DNA from: Escherichia phage NHEP1
Length of the DNA stretch: 64,000 nt
Sequence record: PQ511146.1
Direction: 5' to 3' (one strand)
Shown here one piece after another: positions 8,167 to 48,833 of this stretch (within the stretch, counting starts at the first letter, position 1; each line of letters opens with the position of its first letter). A model generated the notes under the pieces. The model was given only the letters and a program-made list of their open reading frames with translations, was not told where the DNA came from and did no database searches. A program made the position numbers and the translations under genes.

Positions 8167-9714
8167 TTAGATAAAACGCTTGAACATAGAAGGTGATGAG
8201 ATTGATGGAATCACACAAGGCAGCGCTACCTCCTCTTTCTCCAGGAAATTAATCGCAGAAGCTACACAGTCGGCCCAGTCGTCTTTTCTGTTAAATGTTG
8301 ATCTTTCCCCGTTGAACTTTTCAAGTTCAGTTAGAAATGCTTCCAGAGTGTCAGGATGGAAACTGGATTTTACAATCCTCACCATTCCTTGTTGGGCAAG
8401 ATTGGCAAAGGGTGAGAACCTTGTCAGTTTAGATTTGTTGGAAGGCATTGGATCTTCTTCAACCCTGAACCCTTCGGCGAGCAAGGATCTGGACGAGGTT
8501 AAGAACTCACTCTTACCTGCCTGACCGGGGTCCACAGAAAATACGATTATGCAATCATCTCCATCAAACTGCGCCTGTTTCCTGATGATCACATCTCGTT
8601 CCCCAGCCTTTTTACAGAACTTTCCTTCCAGACCTGTGGAATACCTACCGTCATCCACGTTCTCAGGACAATAATCCCCGGACAGGTAATAAAAGCCGTC
8701 GCTATCTTTACTTACCTTAACACTGGCGGTAAAGTCAGGAAATTTATTACCGGAAGTTCTCTCGGTTCCTGCTTTATCCCATGCCCTGCAAGATACTGAT
8801 CCAAGAGGTACTCTATCGGCATCACGAAGGAAAGATCTTTGGAAATAGTTTGCACCCTCAGGTTTGGCAAACCAGTTGCCATGAAGAAGCTGGGCTTTTT
8901 CAAGCTCGGGTAGACCTTCAAGGAAAGCAAGGTATTCTGGGTTGTCTCTCAAGCAGACAGGATTATCGAAAATTGTTGCGCCTATAAACGAGAATGACAA
9001 CGGTCTTGGCTTGATCTCCACACCCAGTCCGTTAACCGTGGTGTATTTCTCTATTAACTCCTCTTTAGAGTCTCCCCAGATAAACTCACCGTCGCGTCGG
9101 ATAAAATATCTTTTCTTACCACATTTCTCCGGGTCTGGATACCCTTCATCGTCCAACCACCACCTAACCAGTTTGGCAAGCATGTGTTCTGAGTCGGGGT
9201 TACAGCTGATAACCATTCTTGATGGATACTTTGACTGAGATCGCAGACGAGACATCAAATAGTCTATCTGCTCCCATTCGAATTGCGTGCCTTCATCGAA
9301 GCAAACCATGGTGTACTCAAGGCCTTGATGGTTAAGCTTATCTTGGACATACTCCATGTGGCAGTATTTTACAACGGCCCCTTTTTTGCTCCTGTCCCAC
9401 TTGCCAGTGCTCGGATCAAACCGTGGAAAAATAAACTTATGATCCTTCTCTCTGAACTTTGGTTTAATGTTTTCAGGCAGATCACTGTAAATAGCTACTG
9501 CTTTAGGCCATAGACCACCCTCACCTTCCAACTGTGGAGTTGTTCTTCGGAACATAACCACAGAGCTGTGCGGGTCATCAATAATTTTAAGCGGCATTAG
9601 CTGCAAGAGGAACGACTTGCCAGACCCAGCTGCACCTCCGATCACCAAAATATCTGCATCGTTCTCTAGGATCATCTTCTGCTTTTCAGAACACGGTCCG
9701 TAAATCTTAGACAT
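8167..9714 (-). CDS. terminase large subunit
   Basis: 515 aa; N-terminal Walker A ILVIGGAAGSGKSF; size and placement ahead of portal. Confidence 0.85.
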   Translation of the reverse strand: MSKIYGPCSEKQKMILENDADILVIGGAAGSGKSFLLQLMPLKIIDDPHSSVVMFRRTTPQLEGEGGLWPKAVAIYSDLPENIKPKFREKDHKFIFPRFDPSTGKWDRSKKGAVVKYCHMEYVQDKLNHQGLEYTMVCFDEGTQFEWEQIDYLMSRLRSQSKYPSRMVISCNPDSEHMLAKLVRWWLDDEGYPDPEKCGKKRYFIRRDGEFIWGDSKEELIEKYTTVNGLGVEIKPRPLSFSFIGATIFDNPVCLRDNPEYLAFLEGLPELEKAQLLHGNWFAKPEGANYFQRSFLRDADRVPLGSVSCRAWDKAGTERTSGNKFPDFTASVKVSKDSDGFYYLSGDYCPENVDDGRYSTGLEGKFCKKAGERDVIIRKQAQFDGDDCIIVFSVDPGQAGKSEFLTSSRSLLAEGFRVEEDPMPSNKSKLTRFSPFANLAQQGMVRIVKSSFHPDTLEAFLTELEKFNGERSTFNRKDDWADCVASAINFLEKEEVALPCVIPSISSPSMFKRFI

Positions 9715-10817: not shown

Positions 10818-10894
10818 TGGTCTCCACGGAGTGATTCGAACACTCGACCTCCTGATCCCAAATCAGGCGCTCTACCAAGCTGAGCTACGCGGAG
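10818..10894 (-). tRNA. tRNA-Pro (anticodon UGG)
   Basis: Manual fold of minus strand: 7-bp acceptor (one GU), D stem GCTC/GAGC, anticodon stem CCTGA/TCAGG, loop TTTGGGA, T stem GAGTG/CACTC with TTCGAAT loop, encoded CCA. Confidence 0.85.
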
Positions 10895-10905
10895 TATTTA
10901 TTATT

Positions 10906-10980
10906 TGGTGGCCCTGGGTGGAATTGAACCACCGTCTGGCGATTATGAGTCGCTTGCTTGAACCTTCCAGCTACAGGGCC
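10906..10980 (-). tRNA. tRNA-Met or tRNA-Ile2 (anticodon CAU)
   Basis: Manual fold: acceptor GGCCCTG/CAGGGCC, anticodon loop CTCATAA, T arm GGTGG-TTCAATT-CCACC, encoded CCA. Confidence 0.75.
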
Positions 10981-10981
10981 A

Positions 10982-11057
10982 TGGTGCTGATGGCAGGACT
11001 TGAACCTGCAACCTATTGATTACAAATCAATTGCACTACCAATTGTGCTACATCAGC
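10982..11057 (-). tRNA. tRNA-Thr (anticodon UGU)
   Basis: Manual fold: acceptor GCTGATG/CATCAGC, D stem GCAC/GTGC, anticodon stem ATTGA/TCAAT with loop TTTGTAA, T arm GCAGG-TTCAAGT-CCTGC, CCA. Confidence 0.85.
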
Positions 11058-11063
11058 AAAAGG

Positions 11064-11160
11064 TGCTAGGTGATGGAATCGAACCACCTATGTATTCAAC
11101 GACTACCTCGTCTATTTTCAGGATTAAAAATCCTCGCCCTTGCCAAAGGGCTTACCTAGC
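11064..11160 (-). tRNA. atypical tRNA-like gene (anticodon-loop-like UUUUUAA, possible tRNA-Lys-UUU variant or pseudogene) with about 30-nt extra region
   Basis: Good acceptor (GCTAGGT/ACCTAGC), D arm (GCCC-TTTGGCAA-GGGC) and T arm (GGTGG-TTCGATT-CCATC), but only a 4-bp anticodon stem (AGGA/TCCT), 97 nt long, no encoded CCA. Confidence 0.4.
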
Positions 11161-11258
11161 GCAATATGTCGACCATGTGGCTAGTCGGCGATGACGACTG
11201 TAACATTTGATAATCCGGTTCTGCTTCCGGCTTTCGCTTAATTACAAGGTCAACAATG

Positions 11259-11349
11259 TGGCGGAGAGTAATGGAATCGAACCATCATCGAGTCATCCTC
11301 AACGGGACGGTTTTCAAGACCGCTTGAGCACCATTGCTCCCTACCCTCC
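11259..11349 (-). tRNA. tRNA-Ser (anticodon UGA), class II
   Basis: Manual fold: acceptor GGAGGGT/ACTCTCC (one GU), anticodon stem GCGGT/ACCGT with loop CTTGAAA, long variable arm, T arm GATGG-TTCGATT-CCATT, encoded CCA. Confidence 0.75.
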
Positions 11350-11463
11350 TTTATAAATTACACTGATAATGACACTGATTTTCGAGCAGTTAGTGACTAG
11401 TATAAACGACGATAAATATCAATGTCATTATCTGTATGATTTATGCATTTAAAAATATAAATT

Positions 11464-11551
11464 TGGTGGTGAGTGATGGAGTCGAACCACCCGAATCGCA
11501 ATGATAACAGATTTACAGTCTGCCCCGCTACCCCTACGGAATTAACTCACC
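11464..11551 (-). tRNA. tRNA-Tyr (anticodon GUA), class II
   Basis: Acceptor GGTGAGT/ACTCACC, anticodon stem-loop GCAGA-CTGTAAA-TCTGT (as in E. coli tRNA-Tyr), T arm GGTGG-TTCGACT-CCATC, CCA; D arm could not be cleanly folded by hand. Confidence 0.7.
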
Positions 11552-11681
11552 TAAATACTAATATTTAAATTCTTTTTAAAATAGCTAGTGTTCTAACCAC
11601 TAACTATGAGGTATCGGTAAAGTGGTTACCGCCACTTGCCGAAGATTTACTCTGCTAAAGTAAGCTACATTAAAAAGAACT

Positions 11682-11756
11682 TGGCACCCCGTACTGGACT
11701 CGAACCAGTGTCAACGGCTTAGAAGGCCGCTGCTTTATCCACTAAGCTAACAGGGC
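11682..11756 (-). tRNA. tRNA-Arg (anticodon UCU)
   Basis: Acceptor GCCCTGT/ACGGGGT (two wobble pairs), D arm GCTT-AGTGGATA-AAGC, anticodon stem GCGGC/GCCGT with loop CTTCTAA, T arm ACTGG-TTCGAGT-CCAGT, CCA. Confidence 0.75.
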
Positions 11757-45976: not shown

Positions 45977-46220
45977 AATTCTTGACTCTAACGTCTACTT
46001 GGGACAATCCTTCCTGAAAGGAAAGGTCGTACCTGCTGTATACTTCGAAGGGTTGCCGTGGGACGATCCTGTGCGGCAAAATCACAGCCATGTAGGCCAC
46101 AATGTGGTGTTCATCTTGGGATCAGACCTGATCGCGGCTGGTGCCCCGGAATATTATTTCGGAGAGGACTTGTATTATGCCTTTGGGGCAGGGTCAGATG
46201 CGGATATTTTAGAGCTGTGA
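45966..46220 (+). CDS. small acidic protein, paralogue family member
   Basis: MKVKIL...FILGSDLIAAGAP...ADILEL; overlaps previous paralogue by 11 nt. Confidence 0.5.
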   Translation: MKVKILDSNVYLGQSFLKGKVVPAVYFEGLPWDDPVRQNHSHVGHNVVFILGSDLIAAGAPEYYFGEDLYYAFGAGSDADILEL

Positions 46221-46232
46221 TGGGGAACTATT

Positions 46233-46631
46233 GTGAAAAATAAACTGTTCAAAGTTACAATGAAAATTCGCGGAGCTTGGAGCGTAAAGCAAGGGCGTAT
46301 CCCCGAATTTGAGAAAGACTTCTACGTAGTCTCCACCTCGGAGGAGGCTGCATGCTGGCAGGCTGGCTATGCCTATGCAAGAACCTGGTACGAAGGATAC
46401 CAGACTGGTGGCTATGACGGAGAAATTATCAGCAAGGGTGTAGAAGAAATTAATGTGTTGACAAGTGAAAAAGTTTTTGTTATAGTGCATCCAGATTCCA
46501 GAGTGAAGCATTACTGGAATGCCAGAACAAAAACTTGGACACCGTTTGCAGATTCTGCTACACCACTTTTAAGCCAGAAAGCTCTTGACTCTGCTCCAAG
46601 CTACGGGGTTGTTGAAGAAAAGCTAAACTGA
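46233..46631 (+). CDS. hypothetical protein, paralogue of 48438-48833
   Basis: Shares VIVHPDSRVKHYWNARTKTWTP with VMRHPHSNIAYYWDVLNNEWTP of 48438-48833. Confidence 0.45.
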   Translation: MKNKLFKVTMKIRGAWSVKQGRIPEFEKDFYVVSTSEEAACWQAGYAYARTWYEGYQTGGYDGEIISKGVEEINVLTSEKVFVIVHPDSRVKHYWNARTKTWTPFADSATPLLSQKALDSAPSYGVVEEKLN

Positions 46632-46648: not shown

Positions 46649-46939
46649 ATGATGGATTTAGTTCTGGACACTGATAACACCGGAGCGTTTAAAAAGGATG
46701 GTGCAATAAGCATTGACCAATTCTTCCCTGCCAAGATTGACTCAAAATGGACCTACAAGTTTGACGGTGAGATCTTCGCAAATGATGAGAAGGTCGTGGA
46801 TGCTGTAGCCATTTTAAACGCTTTAGGGTATGACCCTGTGAACTCATTGATCAAGGATCCTGTTGAGTTTGCAGAGTATGTTCGTAAAATGGCAGATCTT
46901 GCAGTAGATATTTTAAAAACTATCGACAACAAGTTGTAA
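46649..46939 (+). CDS. hypothetical protein
   Basis: 96-aa ORF. Confidence 0.4.
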   Translation: MMDLVLDTDNTGAFKKDGAISIDQFFPAKIDSKWTYKFDGEIFANDEKVVDAVAILNALGYDPVNSLIKDPVEFAEYVRKMADLAVDILKTIDNKL

Positions 46940-46945
46940 AAACTG

Positions 46946-46974
46946 TTGACACAACGCTTCAGATTTAGTATCAT
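46946..46974 (+). promoter_or_regulatory. sigma70-like promoter followed by leader hairpin (46984-47001)
   Basis: TTGACA (46946-46951) N17 TATCAT (46969-46974); then AGAGGG-TTGGTT-CCCTCT plus TCTTT before the HPF-like gene. Confidence 0.5.
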
Positions 46975-47020
46975 TGTTTTCAAAGAGGGTTGGTTCCCTC
47001 TTCTTTAAAAGGAACACATT

Positions 47021-47338
47021 ATGCAAATTGAAATCACTGGCAACGTAGAGATCACTGAAGGTATGGTGTCTTTCATTTCCAACAAAATGTCCAAGCTGGA
47101 GCGTTTGCACCCCTCTGCCAACTATGCACGTGTGAGTGTAAAAGTTGAAAATGATCACCAGGAAGTTATGGCTTTCATTTTTGACAATTCTGGGAAAGAA
47201 GTTATCGCCAAAGCTAAAGGCAGCGATGCTTACGAGGCAACTGACCGTATGGTGGATGTTGCAGCACGCCAGTTGGCTAAATGCGGTGGAAAGAAAGGTA
47301 AGGGAAAAGGTAAAGTAAAGATTGACTTTTTAGATTGA
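47021..47338 (+). CDS. hpf: ribosome hibernation promoting factor / YfiA (RaiA) family homologue
   Basis: MQIEITGNVEITEGMVSFISNKMSKLERL...VSVKVEND...EVIAKAKGSDAYEATDRMVDVAARQLAK aligns along its length with E. coli HPF (MQLNITGNNVEITEALREFV...KLEQ...VLKVEK...GEIHASAEGQDMYAAIDGLIDKLARQLTK) from memory; Lys/Gly-rich tail. Confidence 0.7.
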   Translation: MQIEITGNVEITEGMVSFISNKMSKLERLHPSANYARVSVKVENDHQEVMAFIFDNSGKEVIAKAKGSDAYEATDRMVDVAARQLAKCGGKKGKGKGKVKIDFLD

Positions 47339-47347
47339 GGTGCTACA

Positions 47348-47449
47348 ATGGGCATGATTAAGAAATTAGTCCCAAATGTAGAGATTGCATGCTTTGAAAT
47401 TATGTTTGCAATCGCAGTTGTAGTTAATGTGTTAGGTTACGGCTATTAA
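47348..47449 (+). CDS. 33-aa hydrophobic micro-protein (unannotated)
   Basis: Own translation MGMIKKLVPNVEIACFEIMFAIAVVVNVLGYGY; GAGGTG RBS right after the HPF-like stop. Confidence 0.3.
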   Translation: MGMIKKLVPNVEIACFEIMFAIAVVVNVLGYGY

Positions 47450-47475: not shown

Positions 47476-47745
47476 ATGAAAATTAAATTATTCCAAACTG
47501 AGCTGGCAGACAAAAACTGTGGACTGGTTGAAGGCATGATCGTTGAAGCACAACCAGTTGACTACATGAAGGTGGTTCGTGATGCCCTGGGTGAAGGTTT
47601 TGATCTGATGGAGCCAGCTCTGCGAGAAGATGTCATCGAGATGGCTAAAAAGCACACACCGGAAGGTTTGGTAGTGTTTGTTGCACCAGGTAACGGGGAA
47701 GAGTTGATTGTAACTCCGGATGTGTATGAGGTTGTAGAAGAGTAA
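47476..47745 (+). CDS. small acidic protein, paralogue family (divergent)
   Basis: MKIKLF... and C-terminal YEVVEE. Confidence 0.45.
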   Translation: MKIKLFQTELADKNCGLVEGMIVEAQPVDYMKVVRDALGEGFDLMEPALREDVIEMAKKHTPEGLVVFVAPGNGEELIVTPDVYEVVEE

Positions 47746-48105: not shown

Positions 48106-48438
48106 ATGAAAGTACGCTTTATTGGTGAAACAATTCCTGTGCATCTCCGGTCTCCTGAAGACTCTGCAGATCTTGCATCTCAAAAGGCGAGAGGGTATGA
48201 TAAGAAAGTGATCTCAAGCAATGTAGAGCTTGAGGCCACCAGTCTACCTGACCCAGCTGCATTCTTCAATCATTATGGCTACTATTTTAGCAATCTGATG
48301 AATATTGGTGAGCTTGTGTTTATTAGTGGTGGAGAGATAGTTAGCAAGCTTGGTGGAGATCCGGATATCTTTCATGAAACCTGCCCTTTTGCATTTGTGG
48401 TGGGTTCAGATGTGGAAGTTATTGAGGAGGTTCGGTAA
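48106..48438 (+). CDS. small acidic protein, paralogue family (divergent)
   Basis: Trimmed to MKVRFIG after GGGGTGAG; C-terminal FVVGSDVEVIEEVR. Confidence 0.45.
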   Translation: MKVRFIGETIPVHLRSPEDSADLASQKARGYDKKVISSNVELEATSLPDPAAFFNHYGYYFSNLMNIGELVFISGGEIVSKLGGDPDIFHETCPFAFVVGSDVEVIEEVR

Positions 48439-48833
48439 TGGTAAGTCTATACCGTGTTGAGTATAGCTCGGATACTGTATACAATGTAAGAAGCAAAGAT
48501 CGCAGTGACAGAGTGCAAGAAATGTATGTTCTTGCAGACAGTCCGTTATCTGCAGCGTTCAAGGCAGGAGCTCTTGCATCTCGTTGGAAATTTGAGGGTG
48601 GATCTTTCTATGAAGAAACCCTTGAAGATTCTGTTGTTATTTCTTCTGTAGAGGTTTCAACCGACTACGAAGGGAAAAAGTTCGTAATGCGGCACCCACA
48701 CAGCAACATTGCGTACTACTGGGATGTTCTGAACAATGAGTGGACCCCTGATCTTCAGAAGGCCACTGTTCTAACCCCATTCCTGGCAGATAAGTTTCCA
48801 CCAGAAGGTAATTTATCTGCACTGTTTCAGTAA
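48438..48833 (+). CDS. hypothetical protein, paralogue of 46233-46631
   Basis: Shared HP..S...YW...N.WTP block. Confidence 0.45.
   Translation: MVSLYRVEYSSDTVYNVRSKDRSDRVQEMYVLADSPLSAAFKAGALASRWKFEGGSFYEETLEDSVVISSVEVSTDYEGKKFVMRHPHSNIAYYWDVLNNEWTPDLQKATVLTPFLADKFPPEGNLSALFQ

Follow-up and report, generated by a model that had tools for sequence, protein, structure and literature searches.

A short-HPF-type gene of the HPF/YfiA family in an rV5-like coliphage: family assignment, genomic setting and possible roles during infection

What use could a phage of Escherichia coli have for a gene that encodes a ribosome hibernation factor? The question is raised by an open reading frame at 47021-47338 (plus strand, ATG to TGA, 105 aa), identifiable both in the letters and in the ORF list of the 64,000 nucleotides of Escherichia phage NHEP1 (PQ511146.1) that we have analyzed, hereafter the window. 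Its translation is MQIEITGNVEITEGMVSFISNKMSKLERLHPSANYARVSVKVENDHQEVMAFIFDNSGKEVIAKAKGSDAYEATDRMVDVAARQLAKCGGKKGKGKGKVKIDFLD. A previous sequence-only reading of this DNA had given exactly these coordinates and this length, and had described the product as a homolog of the E. coli hibernation factor HPF, preceded by a promoter and a leader hairpin and possibly acting to shut off host translation. The gene is the hpf of the rV5-like (Vequintavirus) coliphages, which are virulent, and was already known as ORF144/gp139 of rV5 (protein ABI79209, YP_002003641). Since the rV5 reference and around a hundred relatives carry it as an annotated gene, and it has been published together with experiments, its presence here is no discovery. 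What is added by our analysis are the contact residues that have been kept or replaced, a C-terminal tail of intermediate length, a leader hairpin that is lineage-specific and the confinement of the gene to a single genus.

The annotation of this gene is rather heterogeneous. The rV5 RefSeq genome (NC_011041) describes ORF 144 (rv5_gp139) as 'similar to Klebsiella oxytoca probable sigma(54) modulation protein', and other records label it 'ribosome hibernation factor', 'hpf' or 'RaiA'. The last label comes from NCBI annotation and is generic, and therefore provides no evidence for a RaiA-type function. In the bov* and SA_NWU records the true HPF is labeled 'ATP-dependent protease La type I'. 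Over the 2.5 kb around hpf, the identity is 97.6% with Escherichia phage vB_EcoM-ECP32 and 94-95% with rV5, FV3 and some 110 other Vequintavirus records. The protein of rV5 is 99% identical over 103 of the 105 residues and differs at residue 21 (N here, H in rV5) and at the C-terminal two (LD here, GE in rV5). Promoter, hairpin, Shine-Dalgarno sequence and gene order are also shared with rV5, the loop of the rV5 hairpin being 1 nt longer.

Regarding family membership, the expectation was that the Ribosomal_S30AE profile would recognize the protein, and it did so above the cut-off (PF02482, 48.9 bits, gathering score 23.7, E = 1.1e-12, profile positions 1-83 of 88). The NCBIfam profile of the HPF/YfiA family (TIGR00741) gave 46.2 bits, its cut-off being 40.9. 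The alignment to E. coli HPF along the whole length, which the sequence-only reading had proposed, was recovered by HMMER against the PDB entry 2rql, in which residues 1-89 are paired with residues 1-89 with a single one-residue gap in each protein and 37 identical columns out of 90 (overall identity is about 41-43%). The three motifs that had been singled out are found where they were expected, namely the start (MQIEITG-NVEITE in the phage, opposite MQLNITGNNVEITE in E. coli HPF), the KVE block (VKVE opposite LKVE) and the RQLxK end (RQLAK opposite RQLTK). At the level of subfamily neither equivalog cut-off was reached. The gammaproteobacterial short-HPF model NF007780 gave 56.2 bits (cut-off 125), although it was still the top-scoring subfamily, and the RaiA/YfiA model NF007654 gave 18.2 bits (cut-off 158). 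Because of this difference, and because the best phmmer matches in the PDB were E. coli HPF chains (2rql, 4v8h and 6h4n, E = 5.6e-12) versus E = 0.17 for YfiA chains, the phage core is nearer to HPF than to RaiA.

The structural prediction points in the same direction. The AF2 model (mean pLDDT 83.8) has the HPF/YfiA fold, with the order of elements E-H-E-E-E-H that the sequence-only reading had foreseen (E2-7, H13-29, E33-42, E47-55, E60-67 and H70-89). The core (residues 1-80) is modeled with pLDDT of 86-96 and the tail (residues 90-105) is disordered. The input alignment for this model was shallow (5 sequences); the word-indexed protein search returned only 5 close relatives, too few for a deep alignment. 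When the model was compared with the PDB by Foldseek, all 35 matches with E <= 0.001 were HPF, YfiA or pY structures, with rmsd values of 1.1 A for the HPF of Vibrio cholerae (4hei) and 1.2 A for the ribosome-bound E. coli HPF (6h4n_x, 42% identity). Given these profile matches and this fold, the family assignment holds, and we consider it near certain that the gene encodes a short-HPF-type member of the HPF/YfiA (Ribosomal_S30AE) family. The S30AE core corresponds to 47021-47281 (plus strand) and is supported by PF02482, TIGR00741, the AF2 model, Foldseek and the dN/dS values described below.

A way to look into the likely behavior of the protein is to examine the residues by which cellular HPFs touch the ribosome. 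We have aligned the phage HPF with 17 diverse cellular HPFs, with E. coli HPF and with the protein of a distant sister lineage (P0004). The invariant or nearly invariant columns (G7, T12, K22, A63, D69, Y71 and D75) and the RQL motif are all kept in the phage protein. Cryo-EM of HPFs of Gram-negative bacteria (bioRxiv 10.1101/2025.10.07.680626, E. coli numbering) has shown that K26 and Q29 touch phosphates near m3U1498, that T53 and residue 62 touch m2G966, that R83 touches m4C1402 and that H55 and E60 touch the C-terminus of uS9, and basic residues K80, K87, K89 and K91 are described on helix alpha-2. By HMMER mapping, K26 (K25 in the phage), E60, R83, K87 and K91 are kept; K91 was assigned by continuing the numbering directly, as the printed alignment stops at residue 89. 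Q29 is conservatively replaced by R, and position 62 is I (compare V in Pseudomonas aeruginosa). Four contacts are replaced, T53F, H55F, K80V and K89G. On balance this pattern of residues favors a protein that would have retained ribosome binding with an altered detail.

The comparison with the two E. coli paralogs is instructive. With the short HPF (YhbH, 95 aa; 2rql, 6h4n, 6y69) the phage protein shares the fold, a collinear alignment over the full length and residues K23, K26, E60, R83, K87, K91, D69, Y71 and D75; M70A is to be added to the four replacements mentioned above. The phage gene has a sigma-70 promoter of its own, whereas E. coli hpf is under the regulation of the host. RaiA (YfiA, pY; 113 aa) has the same fold and the same ribosomal site as the rest of the family, but a far weaker sequence similarity to the phage protein. 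A difference from both lies in the C-terminal tail (aa 88-105 plus the stop codon, 47282-47338, plus strand; CGGKKGKGKGKVKIDFLD), which is Lys/Gly-rich, with a net charge of +4, and is predicted to be disordered (pLDDT 42-46 in the AF2 model). After the RQLxK motif there are 18 residues in the phage protein, 8 in E. coli HPF and 27 in RaiA. As in RaiA, a basic spacer leads to an aromatic-acidic end (...KVKIDFLD in the phage); the charge of the RaiA tail is -3. In RaiA the extended tail points to the RMF site, where it presumably prevents the dimerization that depends on RMF (PMC10502375). A tail of intermediate length like this one would be compatible with either HPF-like or RaiA-like behavior.

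In the sister lineage the tail has a different sequence (SKSKGIDKRTAKWDY; ...KRTAKWDY) but a similar length, a basic character and an aromatic-acidic end. Within the genus it is truncated or altered in three phages. The HPF of Murica (L015, 625-924) has 99 aa and ends inside the Lys/Gly repeat, and those of APECc02 and YN3 match residues 1-88 only. The tail may thus be non-essential, or the shortened records may hold errors in the slippery AAAGG repeat. In a fourth phage, YP-6 (L009, 628-639), the hpf frame is interrupted by a stop at its fourth codon (after MQI) and the CDS has been annotated from an internal Met. These four variants could be either natural loss and tail variation or sequencing errors, the AAAGG tract being repetitive.

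The rV5 protein has already been studied experimentally. Mizuno et al. (2019; PMC6375957) catalogued ABI79209 and its relatives as virus-encoded HPFs, located among gammaproteobacterial sequences, and proposed that viral HPFs might compete with host factors, preventing ribosome dimerization. In E. coli NM522 with the rV5 HPF on pBAD24, the protein was found in the lysate and was absent from the 70S and 100S fractions, and the abundance of 100S particles, few of which were formed even in the control, was unchanged (PMC6375957). The promotion of 100S that is known for E. coli HPF, by which RMF-dependent 90S particles mature into 100S dimers, was thus not seen for the rV5 protein in the only test available, one in which few 100S particles form. 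The cells had been harvested at the end of the exponential phase and the ribosomes pelleted through 500 mM NH4Cl, and the authors considered the result inconclusive, with growth phase, loss of binding and stripping by salt as the alternatives (PMC6375957). Under induction with arabinose the cells still grew, overnight as well as to OD 1, and their ribosome profiles were normal (PMC6375957). The gene was mentioned again in five rV5 isolates from the gut (Mathieu et al., 2020; PMC6969025), and our literature search retrieved no functional work on phage HPFs after 2019. Genes of the HPF family are also found in other large myovirus genomes, those of Cronobacter phage GAP32 and the Xanthomonas jumbo phage XaC1, but with low similarity to the present one and classified in a separate PHROG (phrog_8990, the present one being in phrog_12469), and the acquisitions of HPF by phages have been considered independent (PMC6375957).

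Among sequenced phages, hpf is a genus-wide trait that is missing from the sister genera. We base this on the confinement of the matches to genus-level records, as tblastn (E <= 1e-5) detected hpf in 117 GenBank phage records, with a protein at least 95% identical in 116 of them, and in none from the sister genera of the Vequintavirinae. Used as denominator, the large terminase of the window identified about 120 genus-level records (>= 99% identity) and 76 records from sister Vequintavirinae genera (60-80% identity). The terminase gene itself (terL, 8167-9714, minus strand) matches phages phiWec191 and A142 in 2-3 pieces across 1.9-3.4 kb, which suggests that in these two phages it may carry an insertion (an intron or a homing-endonuclease gene). 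Eighteen GenBank records of the MG0656xx series, named 'UNVERIFIED: Campylobacter phage' (for example, L011, L014 and L017), are 94-95% identical to the hpf region; the C. jejuni host given in them looks doubtful.

The gene is under strong purifying selection across the genus. The dN/dS values (Nei-Gojobori, codons 1-87) between the window and 11 genus-level variants were 0.02-0.17, with dS up to 0.76, and the mean over the 65 genus-level pairs having dS above 0 was 0.05. This codon-level selection fits the plus-strand frame, and the two minus-strand ORFs that lie beneath hpf (46913-47158 and 47230-47355) were discarded as unsupported. The gene is likewise retained in a distant syntenic lineage (P0004, loci L003-L006, 64% identity) that is represented by metagenomic assemblies. 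When 1.84 billion cluster representatives were searched with HMMER there were 23 matches at E <= 0.001, one of which (P0006, 1160 aa, repetitive) was spurious and was dropped; the best match outside the phage lineage had 45% identity and E = 2.7e-7. The phage HPF is thus isolated in sequence space. A gammaproteobacterial origin would fit, and the acquisition does not look particularly recent.

Upstream of the gene the sequence-only reading had recognized a TTGACA-N17-TATCAT promoter, and this is indeed what the letters show at 46946-46974 (plus strand), with TTGACA at 46946-46951, a spacer of 17 nt and TATCAT at 46969-46974 (scan score 11 of 12). At the equivalent place NC_011041 annotates 'Sigma70-type promoter; P144'. 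Sites with at most one mismatch to TTGACA-N17-TATAAT are strongly enriched in the window, 8 versus 0.49 expected (about 16-fold), and none of 100 shuffles reached 8. The -35 element with its flank (AAACTGTTGACACA) is invariant in 15 genus-level variants and also in the lineage with 64% identity (L003-L006). We take the site for a real promoter, because it belongs to an enriched class, is intergenic and on the coding strand and has a -35 block that does not vary even at 64% identity. It would be read by the host RNA polymerase, presumably early, a timing suggested by the type of promoter alone, and hpf sits within a block of small genes that resemble early genes. Our literature search retrieved neither a transcriptome nor a mapped transcription start of a vequintavirus.

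Between promoter and gene there is a stem-loop at 46983-47002 (plus strand), in which AAGAGGG (46983-46989) and CCCTCTT (46996-47002) form 7 bp around a loop of 6 nt (TTGGTT), at -10.5 kcal/mol. It had been placed before at 46984-47001, with ends within one base of ours. The hairpin starts about 2-3 nt past the predicted transcription start, and at this same distance all 15 genus-level leaders have a stem-loop (-5.3 to -11.7 kcal/mol); the leaders were taken from GenBank records, as the scan of IMG/VR provided only 2 loci. The signs of selection on the structure are weak. The folding of the 60-nt leader is unexceptional compared with shuffled sequences (z = -0.53, with 55 of 200 shuffles equal or better), and the 15 leaders vary most in the loop and the distal stem. 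In the RNAalifold analysis of 11 distinct variants a single one of 6 stem pairs is compensated (G-C to A-U, in 3 sequences), with a covariation term of -0.11, and the same pair is broken (A.C) in 3 of the 11. The hairpin is absent from the sister lineage (L003/L005), where the leader has about 20 nt and GAGGG, which here belongs to the 5' arm, stands at Shine-Dalgarno distance from the ATG.

The suggestion that this hairpin might attenuate transcription could not be upheld, as there is no U-tract after the stem (CUUCUUUAAAA), the terminator scan did not flag it and the search of the leader against Rfam matched no family. A terminator of the upstream gene was also rejected, the hairpin being 3' of the promoter and devoid of a U-tract. 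Nor is a hairpin after the start a general trait of the early promoters of this phage, since 15 plus-strand TTGACA promoters gave no consistent pattern. In E. coli, 5'-terminal stem-loops stabilize mRNA, as in the ompA 5' UTR. By analogy this lineage-specific, 5'-proximal stem-loop would plausibly stabilize the hpf mRNA, the other possibility that had been mentioned. Translation would start from the Shine-Dalgarno sequence AAGGA at 47009-47013 (plus strand), 7 nt 5' of the ATG. The motif AAAAGGA(A/G)CAC is conserved in most genus variants, and Murica has a ribosome-binding site annotated at the equivalent place. In some variants a weak helix of 4 bp (UCUU/AAGG) can pair with the Shine-Dalgarno sequence.

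What would such a protein do in an infected cell? The reading that we prefer, to which we would give a probability of about 55%, is that of an early HPF-type factor, which would attach to vacant ribosomes at the canonical site and preserve or park them during infection. The host RNA polymerase would transcribe hpf soon after infection, and the 5' stem-loop would probably slow decay that depends on the 5' end rather than act by attenuation. The protein would then bind vacant 30S or 70S ribosomes in the decoding channel, as the cellular HPF does, through K25 (E. coli K26), E60, R83, K87 and K91. Idle ribosomes bound in this manner would be parked, that is, protected and reversibly inactive, something relevant mainly in slow-growing, starved or infection-stressed hosts, and the longer Lys/Gly tail may change the interplay with RMF so that 70S monomers are formed instead of 100S dimers. 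Each of these components has its difficulties. Binding faces the negative outcome of the only experiment (PMC6375957), with the caveats of its authors about growth phase and 500 mM NH4Cl, and also the four replaced contacts; the role of the leader has to cope with a hairpin almost without covariation that is dispensable in the sister lineage, and that of the tail with its shortening in a few deposited genomes.

The same experiment, with no rise in 100S and no stable association after the salt wash (PMC6375957), also agrees with the anti-hibernation factor hypothesized by Mizuno et al. In that scenario the phage protein sits at the HPF/RaiA site, or is a competitor of HPF, RaiA or RMF of the host, but gives no support to 100S formation and is easily displaced, and the ribosomes of dormant or stressed hosts stay available for phage mRNAs. 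A strongly basic tail, 10 residues longer than that of E. coli HPF, would suit such a factor, given that the extended tail of RaiA is thought to block RMF, and the changes at T53, H55, K80 and K89 could weaken binding. We see this as possible, if doubtful, as the core is much nearer to HPF than to RaiA, the 100S data were obtained from late-exponential cells with few 100S particles even in the control, and the tail is lost in some deposited relatives. The absence of the expressed protein from purified ribosomes (PMC6375957) could be taken one step further, to a repurposed fold that does not bind ribosomes at all, its dsRBD-like alpha/beta fold and lysine tail acting on some other RNA or protein during takeover. 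The isolation in sequence space (45% and E = 2.7e-7 for the best match outside the phage lineage) and the four changed contacts would go along with this, and purifying selection shows a functional gene and is silent about which function. Yet the columns invariant in the family and the RQL motif are kept, including R83 that contacts m4C1402, the model deviates from ribosome-bound HPF by an rmsd of 1.2 A and the conditions of the negative experiment could strip the factor according to its own authors, so that a repurposing seems improbable to us.

The role as a weapon that silences host translation globally, as the sequence-only reading had in part proposed, has in its favor the early-type promoter, the location among small early genes and the capacity of the HPF family to block the A and P sites (PMC10502375; bioRxiv 10.1101/2025.10.07.680626). 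But the factors of this family bind vacant ribosomes, and phage mRNAs would be blocked to the same extent, the sequence shows no mechanism of selectivity and E. coli tolerated the induced expression during overnight growth and up to OD 1, its 70S profiles being normal. Because the cells grew with the gene induced, and neither ribosome profiles nor 100S were affected (PMC6375957), we disfavor a shut-off toxin and hold a strong effect of this kind for very unlikely. There is also a more speculative reading, which we would rate as rather unlikely. HPF might be, instead of a hibernation factor as the host uses it, a counter-measure of the phage that occupies idle decoding channels from the first minutes of infection, with the Lys/Gly tail excluding RMF. 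The dormancy of the host by 100S formation, or the attack of nucleases or toxins on vacant ribosomes, would be prevented, and the factor could be displaced when phage mRNAs initiate.

If HPF did act as a counter-measure, it would be the first characterized viral modulator of bacterial ribosome hibernation. More generally, phage proteins that associate with the ribosome bear on how viruses tune the translation apparatus of their hosts, and hpf belongs to the small number of such genes in a well-studied group of E. coli phages used for therapy and biocontrol. A demonstrated function would matter, for example, if it enabled productive infection of stationary-phase or dormant cells. The question is tractable, as rV5-like phages (including those of the BASEL collection) and E. 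coli rmf, hpf and raiA mutants exist.

Some features of the neighborhood are worth describing. The gene is followed, 9 nt after its stop codon, by a hydrophobic ORF of 33 aa (47348-47449, plus strand; MGMIKKLVPNVEIACFEIMFAIAVVVNVLGYGY, rv5_gp140) that is annotated throughout the genus; in the divergent lineage L003 we found no counterpart of it. A TTGACT-N16-TACAAT site at 47322-47349 extends from the 3' end of hpf into the start codon of this small ORF. Further downstream, the ORF at 47476-47745 (plus strand, 89 aa) was considered as a paralog of HPF and rejected, with no Pfam match at E <= 0.1. It is labeled 'sigma 54 modulation factor' in ECP32, ECP26, JLBYU08, nomine, naam and ime, which looks like a mis-annotation that has spread from the neighboring true HPF.

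Several small ORFs of the early region (all on the plus strand) are paralogous and form at least two families, one comprising 42094-42327, 45752-45976 and 45966-46220 and another one 46260-46631 and 48438-48833, with identities of 32-40% and 31%, respectively (E from 1e-7 to 3e-14); the members tested had no match in Pfam. Far from this region, at 10818-11756 (minus strand), six tRNA calls are clustered (Pro, Met, Thr, Ser and Arg), one of which is an ARAGORN call of 99 nt (11062-11160) with no assigned identity and a 4-base anticodon, 'atcc'. Genes for ribonucleotide reductases of classes I and III, a DNA ligase, a portal protein and a terminase are likewise found in the window.
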